This document shows positions 11,242-28,066 of a DNA stretch of 64,000 bases, one piece after another (within the stretch, counting starts at the first letter, position 1; each line of letters opens with the position of its first letter). Source of the stretch: an uncultured Dehalococcoidia bacterium (GTDB taxonomy: Bacteria > Chloroflexota > Dehalococcoidia > DSTF01 > RBG-16-68-14). The translations under genes were made by a program, and so were the position numbers. The notes below the pieces were generated by a model. It ran no database searches. It was given only the letters and a program-made list of their open reading frames with translations, and had not been told where the DNA came from. The stretch lies in NCBI GenBank assembly GCA_964418365.1, contig CAYQLM010000001.1:24490-88489 (forward strand). The letters are read 5' to 3'.

Positions 11242-12204
11242 GTGGGTCGTAAGGCTAATCGAGCACGACGCGGTTCTCTAACAAGGCCACAGCCCGCTAT
11301 CCCAAGCCTGGCAATGCCCGCGTCAGCGTCTGCGGCAACCGCACAGTATCGCCGCGCTCGCGCCCTAATCGGTTTCCTTCCAGAACCAGAGGCAGTGAGA
11401 CTTCTGCTCGGGCGCCTTCCGACTCCTGGCGAGGATACTGCTGTCACTGAGAAAGAGGCCGCCAGAAAGCGGTCAAATGTAGAGACTCGACGGCCGTATG
11501 AGCCGTCGGATCCTGAAATTTCCATTGATGATCGCTCAGGTCTTGAGGAAATCGCGAGGCGGCCCGAAATTCAGGCTTCGTTTGCTCCTTTCAACTGGCG
11601 GATCGCCCAAATCGACTTGACTCGGGTGCTGGCCTTTCAGCCGTTGGTCAGCCTACAGAATCTGGACGCCCGGATGATGGGTGTGCTCGAGGGGAGGGAG
11701 TCCCTCTCTGAATTCTGTCTGCCGAATGACCAGACGCCATCTTCAGCGGCATTCTCTCAAGATTCAGACAGTAGGGGCGTAGCCATCAGCTCGCCAAACC
11801 CGAATCTGCGCATAGCCGGTTCTGGAGTTGCCAATGTCGAAGTGCCAGGGCCGGCCGGCTCGCCGCCACTGAAGGCAGTGGCTCTTCAAACGTTTGTGAC
11901 ACTCAATTGCAGCTCCGTGCAGGTAGTTCGGTACTCCAATCGCTCTTTCATAAGAGATGGATATCATCGAGCCGCGGGTCTTCTGCGCGCAGGAATCAAC
12001 AATTGTCCGTGTATCTTCATTGAAGCTCGGAGCATGGATGAAATCGGTCGCGGCGCAGGGACAGTTCCTGAACAAGTTCTATTTGGCGACCGGCCGCCTC
12101 TTCTCGCCGACTTTTGGAACGATGAGGTGTCGAGTGAGGTAGCTCAGGCCGTGACGATGAAAGTTGTGAGAATGCGTGGCGATGAGTTCATGGTCCCGAT
12201 TTGA
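11242..12204 (+). CDS. Hypothetical protein encoded on a low-GC (about 54%) island
   Basis: 320-aa ORF with GTG start after a GAAAGGAG Shine-Dalgarno. No recognisable domain. Codon usage is A/T-ending, atypical for the window. Confidence 0.55.
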   Translation: MGRKANRARRGSLTRPQPAIPSLAMPASASAATAQYRRARALIGFLPEPEAVRLLLGRLPTPGEDTAVTEKEAARKRSNVETRRPYEPSDPEISIDDRSGLEEIARRPEIQASFAPFNWRIAQIDLTRVLAFQPLVSLQNLDARMMGVLEGRESLSEFCLPNDQTPSSAAFSQDSDSRGVAISSPNPNLRIAGSGVANVEVPGPAGSPPLKAVALQTFVTLNCSSVQVVRYSNRSFIRDGYHRAAGLLRAGINNCPCIFIEARSMDEIGRGAGTVPEQVLFGDRPPLLADFWNDEVSSEVAQAVTMKVVRMRGDEFMVPI

Positions 12205-12224: not shown

Positions 12225-13586
12225 TTACGCGACCCTCTCTAGCTCTACGAAGTAGGAGGCGCAGGCGAGGTCGAGCCACTCCGCCGTGAGCGTGGGCTCT
12301 TTGCCGTAGAACTTCGTGATGTCGACAAGCAGCTCGACCAGGTCGCGCGGGTGGCATGCCTTCGGCTGCTGCGACTGGTTGCTCCGGTACATCTGCAGCA
12401 AGTACTGCGCGCCCTCGTCGCTGTAGGCAACGCCCTTCTGCGCACAGACGCGCCGCAGGATCTCCAAGTAGTCTTCCTCGGTCGGGTTCGGCACCTCAAC
12501 CTTGTGCCGGATGCGGCGGAAGAACGCCTCGTCGCCCAGCTTCCCGGGCGGGATGTTCGACGAAAAGACGAGCAGCACGTCGAACGGCAACTCTACCGTG
12601 TCGCCGGTGTGCACCGAGAGGTGGTCCGTACCCTGCTCCATCGGCACGATCCAGCGGTTCAGCAATTCCTGCGGCTGGATGGCCTGGCGGCCGAAGTCGT
12701 CGATGATCAGCACGCCGCTGTTCGCCTTCCACTGCAGCGGCGCGATGTAGAACTGCGAGATCGATGAATAGCGCAGCTCCAGGTCCTGCAACGTCAGCTC
12801 GCCGCCCACGCTCACCAACGGGCGCTTGGTCAGCGCCCAGCGCGCGTCTCGCCGGCGCTCCCGGCCGGCGATCGTCTGCGCCAGGCGGCGGCGCTCTTCC
12901 AGGATCAGCGGGTCGATGCGCTTGTGCAGCCTCGGGTCGAAGACCTTCACGATCTGCCCGTGCACGACGACCGCGTACGGTACCACGACTTCGCCGGGCA
13001 GCATGTCACCGATCGCCGTGGTGATCGAGCTCTTGCCATTGCCAGCGCCGCCGTAGATCAGTAGCGATCGCGCGGAGTTCAGCGCCGGACCCAGTCGCGC
13101 GAGCACCGTCTTGTTCAGTACCAGGTGCGACAGGCCGTTCATGTAGGTCTCGGTGTCGATCTCGATGCTGGTGACCGACTGGCGGCGCAGCACCTCGACG
13201 TACAGCTCGAAGGGCACCGGCGTCGGGCCGACGTAATGGCTGCGCGCGAGCGCTTCTTCCGCTTTCTTGCGTCCGCGGTCGGTCAGCGAGTACTGGTACG
13301 CCTGCTCGCCGACGCCCGCGCTGCCGACGACTTCGAGCACCTGCTCGCGGCGCAGGAACGTGATCAGCTCGGTCATGACGGGGAACGAAAGGCACAGCTG
13401 GTCAGAAAGCACCCGGCCGGAAGGCCGGCCGTAGAAGTAGATCGTCTTCAGTGTGAGATCGACCAGCATCGAGAGCTCGAGGCCGGTCTCTTCGACCGAG
13501 CTCGGCTGCGAGACGAACGGCGCTTCGCCGTCTGCGGATTGGTCGTGGTCTACCGTTACGGAGAGCGTTGGGGACTCTGCAATCAT
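12225..13586 (-). CDS. P-loop NTPase of the AAA+ superfamily with an N-terminal winged-helix-like domain
   Basis: Walker A LLIYGGAGNGKSSI; Walker B VLIIDDFGRQ followed by SSNIPP. This resembles the IstB/DnaC/TniB-style motifs, but the protein is 453 aa and no transposase is nearby. Confidence 0.6.
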   Translation of the reverse strand: MIAESPTLSVTVDHDQSADGEAPFVSQPSSVEETGLELSMLVDLTLKTIYFYGRPSGRVLSDQLCLSFPVMTELITFLRREQVLEVVGSAGVGEQAYQYSLTDRGRKKAEEALARSHYVGPTPVPFELYVEVLRRQSVTSIEIDTETYMNGLSHLVLNKTVLARLGPALNSARSLLIYGGAGNGKSSITTAIGDMLPGEVVVPYAVVVHGQIVKVFDPRLHKRIDPLILEERRRLAQTIAGRERRRDARWALTKRPLVSVGGELTLQDLELRYSSISQFYIAPLQWKANSGVLIIDDFGRQAIQPQELLNRWIVPMEQGTDHLSVHTGDTVELPFDVLLVFSSNIPPGKLGDEAFFRRIRHKVEVPNPTEEDYLEILRRVCAQKGVAYSDEGAQYLLQMYRSNQSQQPKACHPRDLVELLVDITKFYGKEPTLTAEWLDLACASYFVELERVA

Positions 13587-13639
13587 CGTTTTATACCCCC
13601 TAGGATTATCGCGTGGCTGCCGCCGTCCTGAAGAGCAGG

Positions 13640-14065
13640 TCAGCTGGCCAAAACCAACTCCTGCGTCAGATCGCCCCAGCTGAAGAAGACGGCGGAGAGG
13701 CGAACGCCCGCCTGCTCGAAGACGCCGTCCGCAGCCCAGCGCGCCAGCATCGCTCGTGTTTCAGCTTCGACCTCTCCCGTATAGAAGCCGGTAGGCCTCA
13801 GGACCGAGAAGTTCGCGCTCGCGAGCGGTGCCTGGCCTTCGCCCGCGGCCGCGATCGCCAGCGAGACGCTATCGACGCCGTACGGACGGTGCATCGCGCC
13901 GAGCTGCTCGCGGCACCAGGCGATCAGCTCCCCCGCGATGGCGTCGCTCGCGCCGAGCGTTACCGGCCAGCTCGTGTGGTACAGGCCGACGCCCGAATCG
14001 AGCGCCTGGCGCACGGCCCGGCGTAACGAACGGCGTTGCAAGAGTCGTGAGATGGCGTTCGCCAT
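13640..14065 (-). CDS. Hypothetical 141-aa protein, probably co-transcribed with the downstream AAA+ ATPase
   Basis: ORF in the same orientation, 53-nt gap to the ATPase start; no recognisable motifs. Confidence 0.45.
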   Translation of the reverse strand: MANAISRLLQRRSLRRAVRQALDSGVGLYHTSWPVTLGASDAIAGELIAWCREQLGAMHRPYGVDSVSLAIAAAGEGQAPLASANFSVLRPTGFYTGEVEAETRAMLARWAADGVFEQAGVRLSAVFFSWGDLTQELVLAS

Positions 14066-14129: not shown

Positions 14130-14456
14130 TTAGGGAGCGGGCGTCCGGCGCGGCGAAAGTGCGCCCTGGATCATCAGCGCGCCCGCGATCACGAGCGCGA
14201 TCCCTGCGAACTTCGACCACGCGATGCCCGCCACCGCGCTGCCCGAGCCGGATGCCGGCAGCGTGATCGACTGACGCGGCGGGTGGACGGACACAGGGCC
14301 CAGCTCGGAAACGTACGTCGCGGTCGGTAACGGCGCGGCCGCGACCGATGACGTCTCGCTGAGTGCATGCGAGCTTCCGCCGGCCGCGAGCGAAGCGCCG
14401 ACCGTCACTCCGATGACGGCGAGGAACGTGATAGCGGCGATTGTGGCGAGGCGCAT
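14130..14456 (-). CDS. Small secreted protein with a signal peptide and a C-terminal LPXTG-like sortase sorting signal
   Basis: Internal ATG at 14456 gives MRLATIAAITFLAVIGVTVGASLAAG (signal peptide). The C-terminus has LPASG, a hydrophobic stretch and an RRTPAP tail. The ORF upstream extension to 14753 is probably not translated. Confidence 0.5.
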   Translation of the reverse strand: MRLATIAAITFLAVIGVTVGASLAAGGSSHALSETSSVAAAPLPTATYVSELGPVSVHPPRQSITLPASGSGSAVAGIAWSKFAGIALVIAGALMIQGALSPRRTPAP

Positions 14457-14990
14457 AGCTCCGTAGATAACAAGACCGCCGTCTTCAGCAAGACGGCGGC
14501 TGAAGATCCTCCGAGCGTATCCTCTTCGGTAGCCCGGCTGTCGCTCCTGGAAGTGGAGTCGATCCTGGGGCTTTGCGTGGCCCTTCGCGTGACGGGCCGT
14601 GCCCTTTCGGAGGCTTCTATTCGATTGTTGGGTGGGGCCAGGGGACGCCTGCCAGGCCCCGCCTCCTGAACGCGCGTCCCCTGGGCCCGTAGCCCGATCG
14701 CACCCGCCTAAGGCGGGAGGATCGCTCCAGGAATGGCGAACCATCCCGGCCAAGTGGCTCGCGCTGCGCGCCGGCCCCGGCCTCCTGCTGCCCGGCGGCG
14801 GTCATCGCCTTCAGGGCTTCCCGCCCTGAACTGGACGGTCTACCCGTCCGATAACTCTCTAGGGTGTCTGATCCGACGGCCACCCTTCGCGGACCGGCCG
14901 CGGCGTCGGGTCGGGCCGCATTGTGTCACAGGGTTGGCGATATGTCAAGCGCATCAGCACCCAACGCCTAAAACGGGAGCGCTTTCGGCG

Positions 14991-17072
14991 ATGTTACAGA
15001 CTTCGACGATCCGTCATCGGACCTCCTGGCTACGCGCTGTTCTCGTCGCGCTCTTTGTGCTGGCGTTCACGATTGCCGGCTCACGCGATCTGCTCGCGCA
15101 GCAGCCGACGCCGCTGACCGTCAAGATCAACGGCTTTGCCGGCGGCGACTTGTCGCACGCGCAGGTAGTTGTCACGGTGCTGGACAACGCGGGGCATCCC
15201 CTCTCCGGCCTGACGAAGGACAGCTTTCACGCGCGGCTGAACGACGCTGACGCGATCACGATTGGGCTGAGCCAGGGCGTCGACAGCAGCGTGCCGCTTA
15301 CCGTCGTGCTGGCGATCGACGTCAGCGCCGGTATGGCAGGCCCGGCTATGGAACAGGCGAAGACCGCGGCTGGCGGTTTCGTCGATGGACTGGGGCCGCA
15401 AGATAGCGTCGCTGTGTTCGCGTTCAACGACACGGCGAATCTCGTCCAGCCGTTCACGCAGGATCACGCCGCTGCGCACAACGCCATCGACTTCTTAGGC
15501 GCGACTGGTGGCTCGCAGCTGTACCAGGCGACGCTGCAGAGCATCCTGCAGGCGTCCGCCAGCGCCGACACCGGCCGTCGCGCTGTCGTGCTGCTCAGCG
15601 GCTCCACAGACACGAGCGCGGCGACACCGGACCAGGCGCTGTTCGCTGCGCAGGCGCTCGGCGTACCGATCTTCGACATCGCGGTCGGCACGAGTGTCGA
15701 TAACGAGTATCTACGCAAGCTTGCCGACGTGAGCGGCGGCCAGTTCACGCAGGCATCCGGGCCGGAGGCGCTCGTACCGCTGTACCAGAACCTGGGCGAG
15801 CTGCTGCGCGATCAGTATGTGCTGACGCTCGACGCCTCGGCCGTGCAGCTGGGCAAGTCGCAGCCGGCGACGCTATCGATCACGGCGACCGCGGGCGACA
15901 GCAGCGGCAGCGACCAGCGTGTCGTGTGCCCGCAGCGCCTCTGCGTCACGCTCGACAACATCGCGGCCGGCGACAAGGTGGACGCCGCGCGCATCGTGAC
16001 CGCGAGTGTCGTCGCCACCGATCCGGTGACGTCGGTCACCTTCCTGGTCGATGGCCAGGTGGCGTCCACCGCCACGGCATCGCCGTACCAGTTCACGTTC
16101 GATCCGAAGCAGTACGGCAACGGAAAGCATCTCTTGGCTGCTGAAGTGGCATCGGGAAGCGCCACGGCGCGGACGGATGACGTGCAGATACAGTTGGGAG
16201 CGGCAAAGTCCGGCAGCAAGCTGATCGCCATGGGCGCCCTCGGTGCGCTCGGGCTGGTCGCGGTATTGCTCGTCTTGTTTGTCGTACTCCGTCGTCGTGG
16301 CCGGGGCGAGCGTCCTAAGCCTGTCGCGCCGTCCGACACGCCTAAAGTCGGCCCCATTTTGAAGGGCCGCGGACGGCTGCGCATACTCGAACCCGACGAG
16401 GCGCCGGCGGCGCCCGCCGCTGCAGCGCCCGCTGCGCTGGTGGGGCAGCTCCATGTCACGAGTGGCCCAATGGCGGGCCAGTCCTTCGCGATTGGTAGCA
16501 CGCCTGTCAGCATCGGGTCTGGCCATCGTTGCACGATCCGCCTCCCACGCGATCTCGATGAAGGCGGCGAAATCGCTCCCGAGTTCGCCCGCATCTGGGT
16601 GCGTAACGACCAGCTCATGGTGCACGAGCTGCGCCGGCTGACCGTCGCCGGTCCTGTGGGAGGCCGCTGGGAGATGCTGGAGAACGGTGACACCTTCTCC
16701 ATCGGATCGTGCGCCTTCCGCTTCGAGCTCGGCACGGGCGACGACAAGACAGAGGAAACGAAGCCCGCGGAGCCGCCGCCCGACATCCTCCGCAGCAGGG
16801 AAGGCAGCGATGCCTGGCCGGCCGCGTCTGCGACCTTCGCGGCACCGGCGCTACAGGCACCGGCGCAGCGCGCGCAAGAGCTTGCCGTAGAACCGCCGCC
16901 GGACATCTTCCGCAAGAGAGAACAGTCCGCTGCCGCGGCCTCATCCTCGGACACTCCGCCCTTGCCGACGCCGTTGCCCAGCGCTCAGAAGCAGGAGCTC
17001 GAGAACGGCCAGGGGAGGCAGGCGGAGGATTCGGGCCCCGATAGCCCCCCTCAGGCCGCCGCCGCCCCTTAG
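14991..17072 (+). CDS. Single-pass membrane protein: signal peptide, extracellular VWA domain, Ig-like region, TM, cytoplasmic FHA domain, Pro-rich tail
   Basis: VWA MIDAS motif (VVLAIDVSAGM) and TM (LIAMGALGALGLVAVLLVLFVVL). FHA-like region (GQLHVTSGP...SIGSGHRCTIRL...RIWVRNDQLMVHEL...NGDTFSIGSCAFRFE). Tail carries two EPPPDI(L/F)RxRE motifs. Start ATG 14991; the ORF extends up to 14733. Confidence 0.75.
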   Translation: MLQTSTIRHRTSWLRAVLVALFVLAFTIAGSRDLLAQQPTPLTVKINGFAGGDLSHAQVVVTVLDNAGHPLSGLTKDSFHARLNDADAITIGLSQGVDSSVPLTVVLAIDVSAGMAGPAMEQAKTAAGGFVDGLGPQDSVAVFAFNDTANLVQPFTQDHAAAHNAIDFLGATGGSQLYQATLQSILQASASADTGRRAVVLLSGSTDTSAATPDQALFAAQALGVPIFDIAVGTSVDNEYLRKLADVSGGQFTQASGPEALVPLYQNLGELLRDQYVLTLDASAVQLGKSQPATLSITATAGDSSGSDQRVVCPQRLCVTLDNIAAGDKVDAARIVTASVVATDPVTSVTFLVDGQVASTATASPYQFTFDPKQYGNGKHLLAAEVASGSATARTDDVQIQLGAAKSGSKLIAMGALGALGLVAVLLVLFVVLRRRGRGERPKPVAPSDTPKVGPILKGRGRLRILEPDEAPAAPAAAAPAALVGQLHVTSGPMAGQSFAIGSTPVSIGSGHRCTIRLPRDLDEGGEIAPEFARIWVRNDQLMVHELRRLTVAGPVGGRWEMLENGDTFSIGSCAFRFELGTGDDKTEETKPAEPPPDILRSREGSDAWPAASATFAAPALQAPAQRAQELAVEPPPDIFRKREQSAAAASSSDTPPLPTPLPSAQKQELENGQGRQAEDSGPDSPPQAAAAP

Positions 17073-17175: not shown

Positions 17176-17775
17176 ATGGCACTTGCCACACCGAACATCG
17201 AAGAAGCCAGCCTCGTGCGCCGCGCCATTATGCGCGACCGCGAGGCGTTCGGCGAGCTGTACGACCGGCACGTCGTGCGCGTCTACCGGCACATCTACTA
17301 CCTCGTCGGCAACGCGGCCGAGGCGGAAGACCTCACGGCGCAGGCGTTCCTGCAAGCCTGGGAGGCGATCGACCGCTATCAGATGCGTGGTGCGCCCTTC
17401 GTTTCGTGGCTGCTGCGCATCGCGCACAACCTGGCCGTGAGCCACCTGCGGTCACGCAAGGACCGCTCGGAGCTGCCGGACACGCTGGTGGACCACAGCC
17501 GCCTGGGCAATCCGGAGGAAATGGTCCAGCAGACCGCGGAAGGTGAGCGCGTTCGCGCTGCGATTCTGCGCCTGCGCGAAGAGCAGCGTCAGGTGATCAT
17601 GCTGCGCTTTGTCGAGGACCTCGAGTACCCGGAAGTGGCGGAGATCGTCGGGAAGAGCGTCGCGGCCGTACGCGTCATCCAGCACCGCGCGCTCAACGCG
17701 CTGCGAAAGCAGATCGGAAACGAGCCCACGCCGGTGCGCCACCGCAGAGCGACTCGTTTCTCAGCCTCCGGTTAG
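17176..17775 (+). CDS. ECF-type RNA polymerase sigma factor (sigma-70 regions 2 and 4)
   Basis: 199 aa; region 2 (YRHIYYLVGNAAEAEDLTAQAFLQAW) and region 4 (EQRQVIMLRFVEDLEYPEVAEIVGKSVAAVRVIQHRAL). Confidence 0.88.
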   Translation: MALATPNIEEASLVRRAIMRDREAFGELYDRHVVRVYRHIYYLVGNAAEAEDLTAQAFLQAWEAIDRYQMRGAPFVSWLLRIAHNLAVSHLRSRKDRSELPDTLVDHSRLGNPEEMVQQTAEGERVRAAILRLREEQRQVIMLRFVEDLEYPEVAEIVGKSVAAVRVIQHRALNALRKQIGNEPTPVRHRRATRFSASG

Positions 17776-19030: not shown

Positions 19031-19247
19031 CTCCCTAGCATCGACTCACCTTCATCTTACGGGCAGTCTGCGAAGCCCCTATCGGCCGGAGTTCGAGTCT
19101 GGAGCCGCATGTCTTTCGACCCCTTCAGATGGGCTAGGGGTTTACCGATGATGTCATCAGGGAACACACGTAAGGGAATGCCCGGCGAACATGGCGCTCC
19201 TAGAGCGGCCCGCGTCGGAGTCTGGAGAAGGGAAAGGAGGACAACGA

Positions 19248-19463
19248 ATGCAACTGCTCAACGAAGCGCTGCTGCGTATCCTCACCGGTTGGCACGGGCT
19301 TCAGGCTCGGGCGCAGGATGAGGAAGGGCAGACCCTGGCGGAGTACGGCCTGATTATGGCCGTCATCGCCGTGGCGGTCGTGGTTCTTGCGGTGACCGTG
19401 TTCCGCAACGCGATCGTGGGTGCCTTCAACGGCGCCGTCGACTGTCTAGACGGAAGCTGCTAA
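19248..19463 (+). CDS. flp: Flp-family type IVb prepilin, copy 1
   Basis: Leader MQLLNEALLRILTGWHGLQARAQDEEG, then QTLAEYGLIMAVIAVAVVVLAV (Flp G/xxxxEY motif). ATG 19248 with a GGAAAGGAGG Shine-Dalgarno. The ORF N-terminal extension from 19191 is unlikely. Confidence 0.85.
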   Translation: MQLLNEALLRILTGWHGLQARAQDEEGQTLAEYGLIMAVIAVAVVVLAVTVFRNAIVGAFNGAVDCLDGSC

Positions 19464-19479
19464 CCAGCAGCGGATTAGT

Positions 19480-19515
19480 GAAGAAGGGCCCCGCTCTGCA
19501 GCGGGGCCCTTCTTC
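19480..19515 (+). terminator. Rho-independent terminator after flp copy 1
   Basis: Perfect 15-bp stem GAAGAAGGGCCCCGC-tctgca-GCGGGGCCCTTCTTC, then TTCTGG. Confidence 0.7.
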
Positions 19516-19746
19516 TTCTGGCAAGCTGCTGTTCCGAAATATGGATGTCAATTTCCACATTCCATGTTCGTGAAAGATGTCGCAAGCCGATACTAGCACT
19601 AGGAGTAGACATGTAGCCTTCGGCGGTAAGCACAAGGATGGTGCGTAACGGTTCGCCACCGAAGACTGTTCCAACTATTGGACGCCCGGCGATAAGACGG
19701 AGATTCCTCCGCCCGTCGGAGCCTGTGAAGGAGGGAGGGCAAACAT

Positions 19747-19962
19747 ATGCAACTGCTGAATGAAGCCCTGCTCCGCATCCTCACTGGGTGGCACGGGCTC
19801 CAGGCTCGGGCCGAGGACGAGGATGGGCAGACGCTGGCAGAGTACGGCCTCATTATGGCCGTCATCGCCGTGGCGGTTGTCGTCCTGGCCGTGACCGTGT
19901 TCCGCAACGCGATCGTAGGGGCCTTCAACGGCGCCGTCGACTGTCTAGACGGAAGCTGCTAA
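19747..19962 (+). CDS. flp: Flp-family type IVb prepilin, copy 2 (tandem paralog)
   Basis: 71 aa, identical mature region. Two conservative leader differences (Q to E, E to D). GGAGGGAGGG Shine-Dalgarno. Confidence 0.85.
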   Translation: MQLLNEALLRILTGWHGLQARAEDEDGQTLAEYGLIMAVIAVAVVVLAVTVFRNAIVGAFNGAVDCLDGSC

Positions 19963-19993
19963 GCGCAGCCATCCCGCGAACATGCGACCGCGC

Positions 19994-20020
19994 GGAGGGG
20001 GTCCCCTTCGGGACCCCTCC
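19994..20020 (+). terminator. GC-rich hairpin after flp copy 2 (terminator-like, no U-tract)
   Basis: GGAGGGGGTCCC-cttc-GGGACCCCTCC. Confidence 0.4.
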
Positions 20021-20170
20021 GGCGGCAACGCCAGGAGACTCGTCCTCGGCTGGGGCGGGCCTTATAAAGCCCGACTCGAATCCGACCGATACATCTCATA
20101 GGCCTGCATAAGGCCGAAGGCTCTATCTCATTCGATAGGCCGAGTATTCCACTGGTAGCGAGGGAAGCGC

Positions 20171-21010
20171 ATGGCTCAGACAATCACGACCGCTGCAGTT
20201 AGTCGAGTAAACCGCCGGTTTCTGCTCCTGGCCATCGTACTGGCCATCTTGAGTGCGGTGCTGGTCTACGCCCAGCTCTCTCACTCGGGCTCCAATAGCA
20301 GCAGCAGCTCGGGCGGCGGCGATGTGTCCGTTGTCGTGGCGAAGGCCGCGGTTCCGGCCGGGACACGGATCACGGCAGACATGGTCGAAATTCGCTCGTT
20401 CGGCCAGAATGACGTGGGCTTTCAGGCCCTGACCGCAAGCGAGCAGGCTGTCGGACAGGTCGCGCGCTATCCGATCGCCGCGGGCGAGCAAGTGCTGTCG
20501 TCGAAGCTCGTCGACACAACGGTCTCGTCCAGCAGCAACCTCGCCTTCGTCCTCCAAAACGGCATGCGCGGCGTCGCGATGCACGTCGACCCCGTGACGG
20601 CCGCCGGCGGGCTCGTGTTGCCGGGCGATCACGTGGATGTGCTGTGGATCCCGTTCAAGGCCGCGCCCGTATACATCATGCTCTCGGACGTCGAAGTGAC
20701 CGCGGTAAGCCAAACCGTTGTCGATGTGGCGCCCGCGGCTCCTGGTCTGCAAAAGGACCCGAACGCACCGCAGACGGGCAATCGTACGCGCATCTCGGAA
20801 GGCAACCCTGACCCGGCGGCGGACACTGTGACGTTCATGGTGTCGCCGGAACAAGCAATGTCGCTGATCTGCGGCACGAGCATTGCGCAGGCGTATGGCG
20901 GGACCATCAGCCTGTCAGTGCGGAGCTTCGGCGACACGGCCCCGCTGGCGGTCAATGCGCCGCCTTGTCCGCCGACGGAGCTGATGCGACAGCTGGGGAT
21001 CATTCAGTAG
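20171..21010 (+). CDS. cpaB: Flp pilus assembly protein CpaB/RcpC (SAF domain)
   Basis: 279 aa, N-terminal TM (FLLLAIVLAILSAVLVYA), SAF-like VAKAAVPAGTRITADMVEIRSF. Confidence 0.8.
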   Translation: MAQTITTAAVSRVNRRFLLLAIVLAILSAVLVYAQLSHSGSNSSSSSGGGDVSVVVAKAAVPAGTRITADMVEIRSFGQNDVGFQALTASEQAVGQVARYPIAAGEQVLSSKLVDTTVSSSSNLAFVLQNGMRGVAMHVDPVTAAGGLVLPGDHVDVLWIPFKAAPVYIMLSDVEVTAVSQTVVDVAPAAPGLQKDPNAPQTGNRTRISEGNPDPAADTVTFMVSPEQAMSLICGTSIAQAYGGTISLSVRSFGDTAPLAVNAPPCPPTELMRQLGIIQ

Positions 21011-21049
21011 CGCGTAGCAACACGCGAAGACGCGGAGAGGCAGGAGACC

Positions 21050-22243
21050 GTGCCACGCGACCCTGAAATCATCATTGTCGACCCCGACCTCGATACTCGG
21101 GCCGACCTGAAGCATATGCTCGGGCTCGCGAAGCTGGCGGTCGTGGGCGAGGCGGACTACGGCATCGAGGCTGCCACCGTCTCCCAGGAGCACCCGCCGG
21201 ACGTCTTCCTCATCAGCATGGAGGAGCCGGCCGCCCGCGCGATCCAGACAGTGGAGATGCTCGGCTCGGTGGCGCCGCGCGCGGCGATCATTGTCTACTC
21301 CTCGTTGACGGATGCGGCGTCGGTCCGCCGCGCGATGGTGGCCGGGGCGCGTGACTATTTGATCAAGCCTCTCCGTCCCGAAGACGTCAGCCGCGCCGTT
21401 TACGGCATCCTCGAGCAGGAGGAGCGCCGCCGGCTTCAAACGGAAGGCGACCACAGCGAGGCGGTCGCGCACGGCACCGTGGTTACCATCTTCGGTGCGA
21501 AGGGTGGCATTGGAAAGACCACCATCGCGACCAACCTCTCGGCCGCGCTCGTGAACACGACGCAGTCGAACGTGGCGCTGGTCGACATGGACACACGCTT
21601 CGGCGACGTCGCCATCATGATGGACATCGCCGTGGAACATAGTATCGCCGACCTGGGCCGGCGAATCGACTCTCTGGACCGCGAGTCGATCAAGGACAGC
21701 CTCGCGCGGCACCACACCGGCGTTTCGATCCTGCCGGCGCCGCTGCACCCGACGGAGTGGCGTGACCTGACGCCGCAGCACATCGAGCGGATCGTCGACT
21801 TGCTGGCCCAGGGCTATGACTGGGTCGTCATCGACACGCCCGGGACGTTCAACGAGATCATCGCCGCGACGCTGGAGATCGGCGACATCATCCTGCTGGT
21901 CACCAGCATGGACATCGCCAGCATCAAGGACACGGCTCTGGCGCTAGAGATGCTGCGAGCAGCCGATGTATCAGAAGACAAAGTGAAGCTGGTCATCAAC
22001 CACTCCACATCGGCGAACAGCCTGCGTGAGGAGGATGTGGAGCGGGTGCTGGAGTACAAAGTGACCTGGCGCATTCCGCACGATTACAACGTGGCAAGCG
22101 CGAACCAGCTCGGCATTCCTATCGTAACGGCGAAGCCGTACGCTCGTGTGTCGCGCGCCATTGTGGATATGGCCTATGACCTTACGGGCGTTTCCAGAGA
22201 GCGAAAGGGCTTCCTGGAGCGGTTCCTGGGCCGGGCCTCGTAA
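21050..22243 (+). CDS. tadZ: Flp pilus assembly protein TadZ/CpaE (receiver-like N-domain plus ParA/MinD-like ATPase)
   Basis: 397 aa, GTG start, deviant Walker A (IFGAKGGIGKTTIATNLS), MinD fold. Confidence 0.85.
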   Translation: MPRDPEIIIVDPDLDTRADLKHMLGLAKLAVVGEADYGIEAATVSQEHPPDVFLISMEEPAARAIQTVEMLGSVAPRAAIIVYSSLTDAASVRRAMVAGARDYLIKPLRPEDVSRAVYGILEQEERRRLQTEGDHSEAVAHGTVVTIFGAKGGIGKTTIATNLSAALVNTTQSNVALVDMDTRFGDVAIMMDIAVEHSIADLGRRIDSLDRESIKDSLARHHTGVSILPAPLHPTEWRDLTPQHIERIVDLLAQGYDWVVIDTPGTFNEIIAATLEIGDIILLVTSMDIASIKDTALALEMLRAADVSEDKVKLVINHSTSANSLREEDVERVLEYKVTWRIPHDYNVASANQLGIPIVTAKPYARVSRAIVDMAYDLTGVSRERKGFLERFLGRAS

Positions 22244-22273
22244 CACAACTCAGGGAAAGAAGGTTAGCGAGAG

Positions 22274-23623
22274 ATGAGTCAATTCTCGTGGCACCCACGA
22301 AGCGGAAGCGGAACTGAAACTCCGGAGCGGCCGTTCCAGCGGCGCAGCCAGAGCGTCGAGGCCGTCAATGAGCTGAAGTTCACGCTGCACCAGCGCCTCA
22401 TCGAGGAGCTGGACCCGACCAAGCTCCAGGGGCTGGAGCCGGATCGCGCGCGCGACGCTGTCGTCGCCGCCGCGCGATCGCTCATCGCTCAGGAGATGCC
22501 GGGCATCGTCGGCGCCGTGCGCGACGAGCTCGTGCAGTCGGTCGCGGACGAAGTGCTGGGCCTCGGCCCGATCGAACCGTTGATCAGGGACGTAGCCGTC
22601 TCAGAAGTGATGGTCAACGCCCCCGATCAGGTCTTCTATGAGAAGGAAGGCCGGCTCTATCTGAGCTCCGTTCGCTTCCGCGATCAGGCGCACATCATGC
22701 GCATCGTCGAGCGCATCGTGGCGCCCCTTGGCCGTCGTGTGGATGAATCGTCGCCTATGGTGGACGCTCGTTTGCCCGATGGCTCCCGCGTGAACGTCAT
22801 CATCCCGCCTGTCGCGCCGAAGAGCCCGACGATCACCATCCGGAAGTTCCAGGCCGACAAGATGACGATCGAGGACCTGATCGGCATCGGCAGCTTGACG
22901 CGCGAGCTGGCGGAGTTCTTCCGGGCCTGCGTACAGGTGCGGCTGAACATCATTGTCTCCGGCGGTACCGGCACCGGCAAGACGACCATGCTGAACGCAC
23001 TCTCGTCCTTCATTCCAGACACCGAGCGCATCGTCACCATTGAGGACCCGACGGAGCTCAGGCTCCAGCAGGGCCACGTCGTGAGCCTTGAGGCGCGGCC
23101 ACCCAGCCTGGAGGGCAAGGGTGAGGTGACGCAGCGAGACCTAGTCCGCAATTCGCTACGTATGCGCCCCGACCGCATCATCGTCGGTGAGGTGCGCGGC
23201 GCGGAATCCTTCGACATGATGCAGGCGATGAACACCGGCCACGAAGGATCGCTCGGCACGGTGCACGCCAACACGCCCCGAGACGCCCTCGCCCGTATCG
23301 AGAACATGGTCCTGATGGCCGGGCTCGATCTGCCGATGCGCGCGATCCGCGAGCAGATCTCTTCCGCGATCCACATCGTCACCCAGCTCACCAGGATGGC
23401 CGACGGGACGAGAAAGGTCACGCACGTATCCGAGATCGCCGGCATGGAGGGCGACATCGTGACGATGCAGGACCTGTTTCGGTACGAACAGCGTGGTGTG
23501 GACAGCGACGGCCGTGTCATCGGTGAGTTCCGCGCGACGGGAATCCGCCCGCGCTTCGCAGAGAAGTTCGAAGTAGCCGGCATCCGGCTGCCGCCGGACA
23601 TGTTCATGCCGGGAAGGCTGTAA
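22274..23623 (+). CDS. tadA: Tad secretion ATPase TadA/CpaF (VirB11-like)
   Basis: 449 aa, Walker A (VSGGTGTGKTTMLNAL), Walker B/Asp box; His box region HTGHEGSLGTVHAN. Confidence 0.92.
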   Translation: MSQFSWHPRSGSGTETPERPFQRRSQSVEAVNELKFTLHQRLIEELDPTKLQGLEPDRARDAVVAAARSLIAQEMPGIVGAVRDELVQSVADEVLGLGPIEPLIRDVAVSEVMVNAPDQVFYEKEGRLYLSSVRFRDQAHIMRIVERIVAPLGRRVDESSPMVDARLPDGSRVNVIIPPVAPKSPTITIRKFQADKMTIEDLIGIGSLTRELAEFFRACVQVRLNIIVSGGTGTGKTTMLNALSSFIPDTERIVTIEDPTELRLQQGHVVSLEARPPSLEGKGEVTQRDLVRNSLRMRPDRIIVGEVRGAESFDMMQAMNTGHEGSLGTVHANTPRDALARIENMVLMAGLDLPMRAIREQISSAIHIVTQLTRMADGTRKVTHVSEIAGMEGDIVTMQDLFRYEQRGVDSDGRVIGEFRATGIRPRFAEKFEVAGIRLPPDMFMPGRL

Positions 23624-23626
23624 GCC

Positions 23627-24595
23627 ATGGACCCAATCGCGCTCTTAACCGCCGCTTCGGTCCTCGTGGCCGTCCTCTCGTTCGGCCTGGCGTTTGCTAC
23701 CACGCCGGTGAGCGCGCAGATGCGCGCTCGCCTCCACGGCGTGCTCGCCGCTCAGACCGGCATCGCTGACCGCGGCGCCTCGGACGCGCCGCTGCGGGCG
23801 CGCCGCGGGCTTGGCGTGTTCCAAACGCTCATCTCTGGTGGCTGGCTGGCGCGGATGGAGACAGACCTTCGCCTGGCGGACAGTCGGCTCCACCCGGGCG
23901 ATTACCTCGCGCTGCGGGTCGGGGTGGCAGGACTGGGCTTTGTCGCGCCGTTTCTCGCCCTCGGCGGGGGGATGGGCCTCATTCTCGGAATCATCGCCGG
24001 CGCGGCCGGGTTCCAGGTGCCACAGTTCTGGATCGGCAACCGAAAGGCCAGCCGCGCCAGGAAGCTGGAGGCCCAGCTCCCGGAAGCGCTCACGATGGTG
24101 GCGAACTCGCTCAAGGCCGGCTTTGGCTTGCTGCAGGCGCTCAGCCTTGCCGCAGAGCAACTCGAACATCCGGTCAGCACGGAGCTCGCGCAGGCCGTGC
24201 AGGAGACGAACATCGGCTCCAGCGTGGAGGAAGCATTCCGTCAGCTCAGCGAACGGAATGGCAACTACGATCTCGACATGGTGGTGACCGCGATCATGGT
24301 GCAGCGGACGGCTGGCGGTAACCTGTCCGAGATCCTGGAGACGGTCACCGCAACCATGCGCGAACGCGTGCGCATCAAGGGCGAGATCCAGACGCTTACC
24401 GCGCAGCAGAAGCTGACGGGAATCGTCATCGCGCTGCTGCCGGTAGGGGTGGCTGGCTTGTTCGTTGTGATCAGCCCGGAATACATCAAGCCTTTGTTCA
24501 CGGACCCGCTGGGCCGGGTCATGCTGGGCGTGAGTACCTTCCTTGAAGTCATCGGCGTGCTCGTGATCCAGAAGATCCTGTCAATCGAGGTGTAG
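23627..24595 (+). CDS. tadB: Tad inner-membrane platform protein TadB (T2SS F domain)
   Basis: 322 aa, GspF-like domain, TM segments. Confidence 0.82.
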   Translation: MDPIALLTAASVLVAVLSFGLAFATTPVSAQMRARLHGVLAAQTGIADRGASDAPLRARRGLGVFQTLISGGWLARMETDLRLADSRLHPGDYLALRVGVAGLGFVAPFLALGGGMGLILGIIAGAAGFQVPQFWIGNRKASRARKLEAQLPEALTMVANSLKAGFGLLQALSLAAEQLEHPVSTELAQAVQETNIGSSVEEAFRQLSERNGNYDLDMVVTAIMVQRTAGGNLSEILETVTATMRERVRIKGEIQTLTAQQKLTGIVIALLPVGVAGLFVVISPEYIKPLFTDPLGRVMLGVSTFLEVIGVLVIQKILSIEV

Positions 24596-24600
24596 GCGTC

Positions 24601-25506
24601 ATGCCAATGCTTGCCGCGCTAGTCTTCGCTTCCGCTGTCTTCGTATTCGTCCTGTCCTTTAGTGGCGGCGAAGCGCGCATTCGCTCTCGCCTCCAGGCGC
24701 TGCGCGGCCCCGACGTGCATGACCAGTCACGCGAGGCGCTCACGCTGAAGCAGCGCATGTTTCTGCCCATCACGGACGGCATCATGCAGTCTGTGTCGCG
24801 CTACCTGCCGTCCGGCGTCATGTCGCGCATGGAGGAGAAGCTGGTGATCGCTGGCGAGCCGATGTCGGCGAACACGTTCATGGCCGTCCGGCTGATCTGC
24901 TTCGCGTTGCTGGCGGGTCTGCCCGTGCTGCTGCTTACGGCCGGCATGATCAAGCTGAGCATGACGGGCATCGTCTTCATCGGGGCATTTACGGTAGCCG
25001 GGATCATGCTGCCCACCGTGTGGCTGTCGCAGCGCGTAGGGCAGCGTCAGAGCACGATCATCAAGAGCCTACCCGATGCCTTCGATCTCATCACGACATG
25101 CGTGGAGGCTGGCCTCGGACTGGACGCCGCGCTCGCCCGCGTCGCGGACAAGGTCGAGGGCCCGTTCGCCGATGAGCTATCGAGGGCGTTGCGCGAGATC
25201 GGTCTCGGCAGGATGCGCCGTGAAGCGCTACGCGAGCTCGGTTCGCGCACTGGCGTGCCCGACCTGATCACGTTTGTCAACGCCGTGATTCAGGCTGAAC
25301 TTATGGGCTCCAGTGTCGGTGCGGTGTTGCGCGTACAGGCGGAACAGCTTCGCATGCGCCGCCGCCAGCGCGCGGAGGAGCAGGCCTACAAGGCGCCGGT
25401 AAAGATGATCTTCCCCCTTGTGCTCTTCATCTTCCCGACGCTCTTCATCGTCATCTTGGGCCCGGCCATGATCACGATCATGAAGGACTTTCCTGGCGGG
25501 AAGTAG
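24601..25506 (+). CDS. tadC: Tad inner-membrane platform protein TadC (T2SS F domain)
   Basis: 301 aa, second GspF-like paralog directly after tadB. Confidence 0.82.
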   Translation: MPMLAALVFASAVFVFVLSFSGGEARIRSRLQALRGPDVHDQSREALTLKQRMFLPITDGIMQSVSRYLPSGVMSRMEEKLVIAGEPMSANTFMAVRLICFALLAGLPVLLLTAGMIKLSMTGIVFIGAFTVAGIMLPTVWLSQRVGQRQSTIIKSLPDAFDLITTCVEAGLGLDAALARVADKVEGPFADELSRALREIGLGRMRREALRELGSRTGVPDLITFVNAVIQAELMGSSVGAVLRVQAEQLRMRRRQRAEEQAYKAPVKMIFPLVLFIFPTLFIVILGPAMITIMKDFPGGK

Positions 25507-25870: not shown

Positions 25871-28066
25871 CTAGCGAGTGCAGCTGACGTTGTACTCACT
25901 GATCGAGATCCGGATATCGATTACGGTGACGGTTCCGTCGCTGTTTAAGTCCGCCCGCGGATCGTCCATGCGGTGGTAGTGCTGGAGTACATAGATGATG
26001 TCGTTGATCGTCACCTTGCCGTTGCCGTCGAAGTCGGCGCAGGGCCAGGGCATCGGCGTCGGCGTCGGGGTGATCGTCGGTGTCGGCGTGATGGTCGGCG
26101 TGTTGGTGATCGTCGGCGTGTTGGTCGCCGTGAACGTGGGCGTCGGCGTCGGAGCGAGGATGAGGGTCTGCACCTGGGCGATATTGTTGGCGTATGACGA
26201 CTCCGGCGCGACATTGGTTACGAGCAAGCGGTTGGCCGCGGCTGAAGCCGTTAGGGTCGTATCGGAGGACACGGCGACGCGCCCGCTCAACGTGATCGTC
26301 GCCCTGTCATTCGGATGGAACGTTCCAGGGAAGGAGCAACTGAGCGTGCCCGTGGAAACGATGACGCACGTACCGCAAAAGAGCCCGCCGCCGGTAAGCG
26401 TGATGCAGGTACCGGTGAAGTCCGTTGTAAAGGTGGCGATGACGAGGCTTGGGGCATACTGCACGAGCGCTTCGATGAAATATGGCCGGCCGGTCGTCGG
26501 GTTGATGTCATTCACAACGTCGAGCCCGCCAATGTTCGTAACAGCGGCGGTATAGGTGAATATGGATCCGCTTGGTACTGGGTTTTGACTAACGTCCATG
26601 GTCGCCGCCAGATCGCCTGGGGGTGGCGCCGGCGTTGGGCTGGGCGTCGGTGTTCTTGTAGGCGTGGGCGGCGGGGAGACCGTGATCGAGGCCTGGGCAT
26701 CGTTGTTCGCCTCACTGAACTCAGCTACCTCATCAAACGGATCGACGGTGGCCGAATCCACAAAGACGCCCTCCTGCGTCATGTAGCCGCCGATCGTGAC
26801 CGTGGCCACCCCGCCTGCCGGCAGCGCGCCCAGATCGCAGTCCAGCTCTCCGCCAGTCAGAGACCCCAGCAGCGTGCAACTTCCAGCCGAAGCCGAGAAC
26901 GATGTATAGACGAAGTCAACGGGCGGGTTGTGCGCCAGCCGCACCGGCGCCACGGCTTGGCCGCCCACGTTGCGCACCTGGACCGTAAGCGTAAGCGGAT
27001 CGTTGCCTCGAACGGGGTTCGGAGTGGGGACGATCGTTACGGTCAGGTCGCCAGTGAGCGGCGTGGGTGTGAACGTAGCGGTAACCGTAGGCGTATTGGT
27101 CGGCGTGGCGGTCGATGTCGGCGTGCGGGTCGCCGTCGGCGTGCCAGGCGTCGGTGTTCGCGTGGCCGTGCGGGTCGATGTCGCCGTATCCGTAACTGTC
27201 GCCGTGGGCGTTGCCGTGGGCGCCAGCACCTGCGTCGTCGCTAGGGACGTGTTATTCGCCTCGTTCGACTCCGTCACGATGTTGTTAGGGTCGACGGTCG
27301 CCGTGTTCGTGACATTCGTGTCGACGCCTGCCGCGACGTAGCCGGTGACCGTCACCGTCGCGATGGCGCTCGGCCCCGTGCCGAAGGCGCCGAGGTCGCA
27401 GTCCAGCAGGCCGCCGGTGACGCCGTTCCTGAGCGAGCAGGCGCCACGCGTTGTGCTGAAGCCGGTGTACGTGAAATTGGCCGAGGGCTGGTCGATCAGG
27501 CGGACCGCGCTCGCGGGGGCGTTGCCCAAGTTGCGCACCTTGAGGGTGTAGTTCAGTGGCGCCCCGCCCACTACCGGGTCCGGGCTGTCTGTCGTCGTCA
27601 CGATCAAATCGACTCCGTTTGCCAGTGTCGCGGTCGGGGTGAAGGTGTTGGTCGGCACGGGCGTGAAGGTGTTCGTGGGCACGGGCGTGTTGGTAGCCGT
27701 AGGTGTGAATGTGTTGGTCGCCGTCGGCGTAAAGGTATTCGTTGGTGTTGGCGTAAGGGTGTTGGTCGGCGACGGCGTGAAGGTGTTGGTCGGTGAAGGC
27801 GTGAAGGTGTCGGTTGGCGTTGGGGTGAGAGTGTCGGTCGGCGACGGCGTGAAGGTGTCGGTTGGCGTTGGGGTGAGAGTGTCGGTTGGCGTTGGGGTGA
27901 GAGTGTCGGTCGCCGTTGCCGTCTCGGTGGGAGTATCCGTCTCACCCAGCGCCATGCCAGGGCGGGACGGCTGGCTGGACAGGGCGACGAGGGACACGGC
28001 AACGAGCGCGCCCACGAGGAGGCCCGCCACGATGCCCAGCCTGAGGTGTGGCAGCGCCCGACTCAT
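25871..28066 (-). CDS. Secreted protein with DUF11-type repeat domains, Thr/Pro linkers and a C-terminal dockerin-like module
   Basis: 731 aa with a signal peptide. Two DUF11-like repeats ([20 protein letters not shown]..., [20 protein letters not shown]...). The C-terminus has paired Ca-loop-like motifs ([40 protein letters not shown]). Confidence 0.75.
27798..27925 (-). repeat. Tandem 48-bp coding repeat (about 2.7 units) encoding a [16 protein letters not shown] linker
   Basis: Near-identical units GGCGTGAAGGTGTCGGTTGGCGTTGGGGTGAGAGTGTCGGTCGGCGAC on the plus strand. Confidence 0.8.

Follow-up and report, generated by a model that had tools for sequence, protein, structure and literature searches.

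A winged-helix AAA+ ATPase family linked to Tad/Flp pilus loci, and a c-di-GMP-I-class riboswitch upstream of its operon in an uncultured Dehalococcoidia bacterium

The operon and its leader

This report concerns a gene for an ATPase of the winged helix-turn-helix AAA+ type, together with its operon and neighbourhood, in 64 kb of DNA (64,000 nucleotides (nt); hereafter the window, meaning the whole stretch) from an uncultured Dehalococcoidia bacterium of the Chloroflexota. The original prediction presented the gene, with a short gene before it, as a two-gene operon that could encode a helicase-loader-like or defence-type module of an undescribed family. We find that the ATPase family accompanies Tad/Flp pilus genes in several phyla and that the operon in the window is preceded by a riboswitch of the cyclic di-GMP (c-di-GMP) class I. 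The features of the operon and its leader, with the evidence for each, are as follows (aa, amino acids).

12225..13586, minus strand: 453-aa winged-helix AAA+ ATPase (open reading frame, homologue family, AlphaFold (AF2) model, fold matches)
13640..14065, minus strand: 141-aa protein (open reading frame, homologues, hydropathy)
14130..14456, minus strand: 108-aa small secreted protein (gene calls in relatives, alignments, hydropathy)
14475..14500, minus strand: terminator-like hairpin (11-bp stem, then a T-rich tract), lying after the aptamer and before the start codon of the 108-aa gene
14521..14614, minus strand: c-di-GMP-I-class (GEMM-I) riboswitch aptamer (matches to Rfam clan CL00126, custom model, covariation)
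14615..14948, minus strand: upstream part of the leader, conserved over about 300 nt and predicted to form several helices, promoter included
14948-14920, minus strand: sigma-70-like promoter (TTGACA, 17-nt spacer, CACAAT)

The two open reading frames described originally (453 and 141 aa) lie exactly where they had been placed, both on the minus strand. Their coding status was checked because long spurious reading frames are common at the G+C content of the window (about 65%). The ATPase has thousands of homologues, and the 141-aa frame has 37, of near-identical length and 50-100% identity. Its comparison with the orthologue at locus L001 gives 22, 18 and 65 substitutions by codon position, and the peak moves as expected in the other two frames; therefore the 141-aa frame encodes a protein. 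This protein is cytoplasmic by sequence, has no hydrophobic segment, is confined to one Dehalococcoidia subclade and occupies the same slot there, upstream of the ATPase gene; no relatives were found in Pfam, NCBIfam, PADLOC or the PDB. The corresponding slot in Gemmatimonadota holds a DUF192 gene, and remote homology of the 141-aa protein to DUF192 was considered and rejected (hhalign probability 0.2%).

Gene callers applied to related contigs also predict the 108-aa gene upstream of the 141-aa gene. The 108-aa product carries a signal peptide, a conserved core (SETS..AAP.PT.TYVSELGP), a C-terminal LP[ALP][STA]G motif, a hydrophobic helix and a basic tail; judging from the sequence pattern, the last three resemble a sortase-type sorting signal in this Chloroflexota lineage. 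It has no match in Pfam, NCBIfam, PADLOC or the PDB. The 108-aa, 141-aa and ATPase genes are separated by 64 and 53 bp, all three have a Shine-Dalgarno-like sequence, and terminator prediction gives nothing in the gaps. They thus most likely form an operon of three genes, with the LPXTG-like 108-aa protein first, the 141-aa protein second and the ATPase last. The 108-aa gene is the first one after the riboswitch and probably the first of the operon.

The leader extends for about 455 nt from the promoter to the 108-aa start codon and is conserved at the DNA level across loci whose proteins share only 40-66% identity. An Rfam scan of the window yields a single match at E<=0.05, namely an aptamer of the c-di-GMP-I clan at 14524-14612 (minus strand); at 28.5 bits (GGC variant, gathering threshold 59) it lies below every gathering threshold. 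Four orthologous leaders (L001, L002, L006 and L008) each have their only Rfam match at the homologous site: that of L008 passes the RF01051 gathering score (39.3 vs 35), that of L002 just misses it (34.8 vs 35), and those of L001 and L006 score 41.3 bits (UAU variant, gathering threshold 65.9) and 27.9 bits. A covariance model seeded on the window copy recovered 28 full-length copies in 0.7 Mb. Their alignment was fitted to the model; in it, pairing holds for 95.4% of cells, and double compensatory changes are seen in 13 of the 20 pairs, a level reached in none of 500 shuffles and compared with 24-45% in slid controls. On an independent contig (L141) the order is riboswitch, 109-aa gene, 149-aa gene and ATPase gene.

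The aptamer shares with the known c-di-GMP-I riboswitches (GEMM-I; RF01051, RF03167, RF03168) a two-hairpin architecture with a conserved ACGCAAAGC junction; unlike them, it sits in a conserved leader of about 455 nt with extra upstream helices. By inspection, model positions 12, 41 and 86 are G, A and C in the window copy; we take these positions to correspond to the ligand contacts G20, A47 and C92 of Vc2; the aptamer of L001 has C at what is presumably the G20 position. The terminator-like hairpin is presumed to be the expression platform. The extended P1 helix overlaps a possible antiterminator, and this overlap would hint at an OFF switch; thermodynamic folding favours P1 together with the terminator irrespective of the ligand. 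Considering that an aptamer and a terminator hairpin stand together in the leader, expression of the operon is probably set by a cyclic dinucleotide, and the ATPase gene would be co-transcribed with the riboswitch. Rfam finds no riboswitch in the more distant Chloroflexota loci, so this control is lineage-specific.

Known c-di-GMP-I riboswitches precede pilus and surface-protein genes, and so do the copies found here: other copies stand before secreted or surface proteins, a type IV pilin-like gene and a sigma factor. The same subtype was observed in metagenomes (L123, L169, L156 and other loci of the riboswitch scan) before a type IV pilin-like gene, an RpoD-like sigma factor, a CAP-domain protein and many small secreted proteins, which suggests that surface proteins of these uncultured lineages form a broad regulon governed by cyclic dinucleotides. 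The upstream part of the leader (14615-14915, minus strand) is strongly conserved in five loci and contains a nearly invariant 15-bp inverted repeat (14634-14648 with 14674-14688). A few of the several helices predicted there show compensatory changes; this part matches no Rfam family.

The ATPase family and its predicted fold

The Walker motifs quoted originally are present in the ATPase. Walker A (GGAGNGKS, residues 179-186; 13029..13052, minus strand) has G179, G182, G184 and K185 invariant in 90 sequences. The Walker B strand (VLIIDD, residues 292-297; 12696..12713, minus strand) ends in the acidic pair DD, not DE. Between the two lies an 87-residue beta-rich insert (residues 204-290; 12717..12977, minus strand) with invariant D217, H221, D247, R249 and P256, an invariant P203 at its N-terminal edge and a nearly invariant GGEL at 261-264; conservation in the family is strongest in this insert and in the ring loops. 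An RxxxR motif in the Chloroflexota sequences led us to consider the insert as a PilZ-like domain binding c-di-GMP, and the idea was dropped, since the motif is not conserved family-wide. The sequence profile also matches the second region of homology of classical AAA proteins (TN.P..LDEAFFRR), common to Vps4 and spastin. The ATPase has neither a signal peptide nor a membrane segment.

No curated family matches the window ATPase above threshold (AAA_16 reaches 24.5 bits vs a cut-off of 32.6), and the remaining profile matches are short fragments, mostly of the P-loop. An exhaustive profile search gave 1,085 clusters (50% identity) at E<=1e-30, nearly all full-length to the query; therefore the combination of winged helix and AAA+ core is the norm of the family. 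In some members the N-terminus bears an FHA (two cases), PAS or HDOD domain, and public names are generic only ("ATP-binding protein"). The family appears new: it lacks a curated model, none of its members is characterised, and the structure nearest to it is that of an orphan archaeal hexamer.

The AF2 model was built from a 90-sequence alignment (predicted local distance difference test score, pLDDT, 93.5; predicted template modelling score, pTM, 0.90); a shallow alignment of 28 sequences gave a pLDDT of 68.5, and that model was not used. The predicted layout comprises a disordered N-terminus (1-20), a winged helix (38-115), a helical linker (118-172), the AAA+ core (173-365) and a lid (370-445). 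The winged-helix domain is MarR/PadR-like (13242..13475, minus strand), in agreement with the winged-helix-like N-terminal region proposed from the sequence. It is neutral to acidic (median net charge -1.5), no conserved basic residues occur in its recognition helix or wing, and the Chloroflexota sequences have conserved glutamates at positions where MarR proteins contact DNA. In the core, the model places a beta-hairpin (residues 320-334; 12585..12629, minus strand) between helix alpha-3 and the sensor-1 strand; downstream of it are sensor-1 N344, the arginines R357/R358 and the lid with sensor-2 R414. The structural neighbours of the model are given below with their scores.

Rank 1: 8p49, an uncharacterised Pyrococcus hexamer; 19.5
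Rank 2: FleQ; 16.3
Ranks 3-4: LonB (two entries); 16.1 and 15.9
Ranks 5-12: NtrC4, DmpR, FlrC, FleQ, NifA, CbbQ, NtrX, NorQ; about 15-16
Rank 29: DnaA; 13.8
Rank 48: a MarR regulator, matching the N-domain alone (90 residues); 13.3

The ATPase can be placed as a cytoplasmic protein in the hairpin-bearing superclade of AAA+ proteins, and its N-domain is MarR-like. In the paper on 8p49, the structure, determined by electron cryo-microscopy, is described as a hexamer with a flexible N-terminal domain and no known function. The protein (Pyrococcus furiosus Q8U0N8) is archaeal, shares only 14-16% sequence identity with the window ATPase and is shorter (at most 377 residues modelled in the solved chains). 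We presume that the family probably forms rings, that is, hexamers.

The Walker B block (LIIDDFG) does resemble the DD motif of DnaC and IstB, and the original prediction had likened the protein to the IstB/DnaC/TniB helper ATPases. The likeness consists in a P-loop ATPase with an hhhhDD Walker B. Beyond that the two differ: the window ATPase has a pre-sensor-1 hairpin, belongs by structure to another AAA+ clade and has no transposase or helicase partner, the absence of which had been correctly noted and holds for the window neighbourhood and the related loci examined. IstB, DnaC and TniB are absent from the top 60 structural neighbours, and Foldseek agrees. Pfam gives no IstB_IS21, DnaC, TniB or DnaA-type match to the window ATPase at E<=0.1, and the sole NCBIfam trace of the initiator or loader type is DnaA TIGR00362 (14.3 bits over 25 P-loop residues vs a cut-off of 343.9). 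Membership in the IstB/DnaC/TniB group is therefore rejected by profile, fold and context, and with it the idea of a helicase-loader-like module. A new anti-phage defence ATPase might be suggested by a weak IetA match in PADLOC (E 4e-6, 24 bits), a weak IteA match in NCBIfam and a low-GC, poorly conserved reading frame next door; the first match is best over residues 168-216 and the second reaches 14.5 bits vs a cut-off of 510, so that both are short fragments far below the cut-offs, and neither an IetS-like protease nor another defence gene occurs near the ATPase gene. The defence reading was accordingly discarded, and we regard a helper ATPase, helicase loader or defence role as very improbable.

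Linkage to Tad/Flp loci and the VWA neighbour

In the window the operon is divergent from the genes for a VWA/Big_7 membrane protein, a sigma factor of the extracytoplasmic function (ECF) type and a GT87 glycosyltransferase, and from a Flp/Tad cluster. These features, GT87 apart, are listed here.

14991..17072, plus strand: divergent VWA/Big_7 partner gene (Pfam, topology; adjacent in all 11 informative Chloroflexota loci)
17176..17775, plus strand: ECF-type sigma factor (adjoins the VWA gene in Chloroflexota, 61-97% identity)
19248..25506, plus strand: Tad/Flp pilus core (Pfam; Flp assignment via the L001/L002 orthologues), consisting of the following
19248-19463 and 19747-19962, plus strand: two Flp pilins
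20171-21010, plus strand: RcpC/CpaB
21050-22243, plus strand: CpaE/TadZ with a receiver domain
22274-23623, plus strand: CpaF/TadA
23627-24595, plus strand: TadB
24601-25506, plus strand: TadC

The same divergent arrangement is found in 11 of 11 informative Chloroflexota loci (ATPase identity 50-96%) and is kept even where the flanking ribosomal-protein genes have been lost. A scan of one genome per species gave 80 loci, of which 71 had enough flanking sequence to be informative. Tad core genes lie within 10 kb of the ATPase gene in 49 of these 71; in 41 of the 49 the ATPase gene directly follows tadC on the same strand (Gemmatimonadota, Vicinamibacteria/Acidobacteriota and Planctomycetota; about 40% identity). 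Annotation of these loci reveals Tad operons of the canonical diderm kind, secretin included, along with a TadE/G-like protein and a TPR (TadD-like) gene, and in the diderm phyla the ATPase gene stands among structural genes, between tadC or the tadD-like gene and VWA genes. DUF192 adjoins it in Gemmatimonadota; in Vicinamibacteria it is immediately followed by the gene of a secreted Big_7-VWA-VWA protein. A PAS-fused member from Elusimicrobiota is encoded among three Flp genes, a prepilin peptidase, DUF192, PEGA and GT87. The family thus travels with Tad/Flp genes in at least five phyla (Chloroflexota, Acidobacteriota, Gemmatimonadota, Planctomycetota and Elusimicrobiota). That the linkage outlasts such rearrangement in five phyla argues strongly for a functional tie.

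To our knowledge, the ATPase is not among the canonical Tad components listed in reviews. Literature on a Tad-associated AAA+/VWA/FHA component, on Chloroflexi Tad pili and on DUF192 with Tad contained nothing on this ATPase family; its systematic association with Tad operons was not found in the searchable literature and appears new. As a separate observation, DUF192, PEGA-domain proteins, GT87 and TPR (TadD-like) proteins form a recurrent accessory set with the ATPase in other phyla (L019-L034, L028, L079, L086), and PEGA also follows the ATPase in Acidobacteriaceae loci without Tad genes nearby.

The listed reading frame of the VWA partner begins at 14733, and its start is probably at 14991. 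It is a type I membrane protein and consists of a signal peptide, a VWA domain, Big_7, one transmembrane helix, a cytoplasmic FHA-fold domain (YscD-like and degenerate) and a Pro/Ala-rich tail. Compared with the PDB, the profile of the cytoplasmic domain matches FHA-domain proteins only (GarA, OdhI, Mb1858 and Ki-67; E 2e-4 to 0.07, with one weaker at 0.36), and of 9 orthologues, 6 match Yop-YscD_cpl, the YscD-type FHA family, in this domain. The ATPase has a VWA neighbour in 30 loci, and the cytoplasmic FHA-like tail occurs only in the Chloroflexota partner. The ATPase itself bears a fused FHA domain in some lineages, and in others its conserved neighbour has one, which suggests that the two work together. 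The pair of VWA partner and ECF sigma factor is kept beside the ATPase in all informative Chloroflexota loci and may be a surface-sensing module; no obvious anti-sigma gene accompanies the sigma factor in the window.

With a VWA protein next door, it is tempting to see in the ATPase a MoxR-like chaperone, as in RavA-ViaA, CbbQ-CbbO and NorQ-NorD, whose ring would engage the VWA domain with its metal ion-dependent adhesion site (MIDAS) directly. However, in both phyla a signal peptide heads the VWA partners, which puts their VWA domains outside the cell, while the ATPase is cytoplasmic, and this topology makes direct action on the VWA domain unlikely. No MoxR-type Pfam model (AAA_3, AAA_5, bpMoxR) reaches threshold on the window ATPase, in its relatives the match to bpMoxR is confined to the P-loop part and does not exceed the cut-off, and the Gemmatimonadota loci have no adjacent VWA match. 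The known MoxR/VWA pairs differ further in that the VWA partners here are secreted and the window ATPase has an additional winged helix and large insert. We therefore consider this explanation improbable.

Several other features of the window deserve mention. The two Flp pilin genes stand in tandem (19191-19962, plus strand), with near-identical products and duplicated upstream regions. A 731-aa DUF11/CARDB surface protein with a Pro-rich N-terminus is encoded just after tadC (25871-28066, minus strand; GC skew +0.24), and a second skewed stretch lies at 37001-38000 (GC skew +0.25, AT skew -0.42); the probable cause in both is a biased and repetitive coding sequence. Convergent with the ATPase gene is a 320-aa open reading frame (11242-12204, plus strand) in a patch of low G+C (0.567 vs about 0.65), absent from the equivalent position in relatives; it is probably the element described earlier as acquired. 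It has no match in Pfam, NCBIfam, PADLOC or the PDB, and its DGYHRAAG motif is reminiscent of ParB/sulfiredoxin-fold proteins.

Proposed function and its significance

We believe that the ATPase is likely to be a Tad-linked, signal-gated accessory ATPase. How it would act is a more tentative matter. A hexamer might work on a protein of the pilus or adhesin apparatus rather than on DNA, a proposal to which we give somewhat less than an even chance; the non-basic winged helix and the conserved ring loops would bind this protein target, and recruitment or control of the ATPase would proceed through FHA-type domains. In Chloroflexota, the FHA-type domain would be the cytoplasmic FHA-like tail of the VWA/Big_7 neighbour, and elsewhere it would sometimes be fused to the ATPase itself. 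A protein-directed output, held with the same reserve, is favoured by the neutral or acidic winged helix, the glutamates of the Chloroflexota sequences at DNA-contact positions, the structural-gene setting in diderms, the conservation of the ring loops and insert, and the kinship with LonB and the classical AAA remodellers.

A number of points weigh against this proposal. Bacterial winged helices of the MarR/PadR type usually bind DNA, the AAA+ cores nearest to this one among those of characterised function belong to transcription activators, and fusion to PAS or HDOD is a trait of signal-transduction regulators more than of unfoldases. Since the VWA domains are outside the cell, any contact with the ATPase must be made via the FHA-like tail, in which the alignment indicates that the canonical phosphothreonine-binding Ser and His are apparently replaced. 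The 80 loci are the best-scoring relatives and not a random sample of the family. About 22 of the informative loci (about 30%) have no Tad genes within 10 kb and show variable contexts, most of them Acidobacteriaceae/Terracidiphilus paralogues, plus a second Chloroflexia copy (L016); the family is therefore not strictly a pilus component. Finally, its members are uncharacterised throughout.

The first three of these points speak at the same time for a close rival, in our opinion rather unlikely, in which the protein is an ATP-dependent, sigma-54-independent transcription factor. Its winged helix would bind operators in the divergent VWA/sigma/flp promoter region or, in other phyla, upstream of the Tad operon, and its activator-like AAA+ ring would remodel RNA polymerase or a sigma-factor complex, an analogue of PilR/FleQ for Tad pili. 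The divergent position of the ATPase gene relative to its putative target in Chloroflexota and the paralogues elsewhere in the genome agree with such a role. It is opposed by the winged helix, which is not basic and has conserved acidic residues on the usual DNA-contact surfaces, and by the position of the gene among structural genes in diderm phyla. The ATPase also lacks a GAFTGA loop, and Sigma54_activat (PF00158) has no match above threshold: it is absent in the window ATPase and reaches 18.3 bits vs a cut-off of 20.2 in one relative. Sigma-54 promoters number 1 match vs about 4.8 expected in 34 Tad-linked loci, with none in the Chloroflexota loci at the threshold used.

The missing GAFTGA and the lack of enrichment of -24/-12 promoters exclude a classical sigma-54 activator. 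The window ATPase does share with the sigma-54 enhancer-binding proteins an AAA+ core of the helix-2-insert and pre-sensor-1-hairpin type. It differs from FleQ, NtrC, DmpR, FlrC, NifA and PilR in the absence of GAFTGA and of nearby sigma-54 promoters, in an N-terminal MarR-like winged helix instead of a C-terminal Fis-type helix-turn-helix, in the 87-residue insert between Walker A and B and in the DD Walker B.

A bolder extension of the accessory-ATPase proposal, offered by analogy and in our estimate unlikely, is that the protein could be a hitherto overlooked ATPase of Tad (type IVc) pili, the second in their cytoplasmic machinery, serving as a motor or a regulator. It would couple c-di-GMP and surface contact, the latter via the VWA/FHA membrane proteins, to assembly, retraction or adhesin loading, much as the FlaH/ArlH ring lies under the archaellum motor; the relation to 8p49 would then hint at an archaeal origin shared with Tad.

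AAA+ ATPases, Tad loci and c-di-GMP-I riboswitches are each already known kinds of element. Tad/Flp pili are widespread organelles of adhesion and colonisation, and a small number of Proteobacteria and Actinobacteria supplied their accepted parts list. In at least five other phyla, Tad operons contain or adjoin the gene of a conserved AAA+ ATPase, which is paired with VWA proteins resembling adhesins and with modules of the FHA type and, in one lineage, stands behind a c-di-GMP-class riboswitch; this suggests that environmental Tad systems have a further, unstudied layer of control or mechanics. With the riboswitch, regulation of the c-di-GMP-I type is extended to Chloroflexota of the Dehalococcoidia type and tied to a pilus locus. 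For a family of more than 1,000 clusters, and perhaps for the orphan structure 8p49, the linkage provides a testable functional context.

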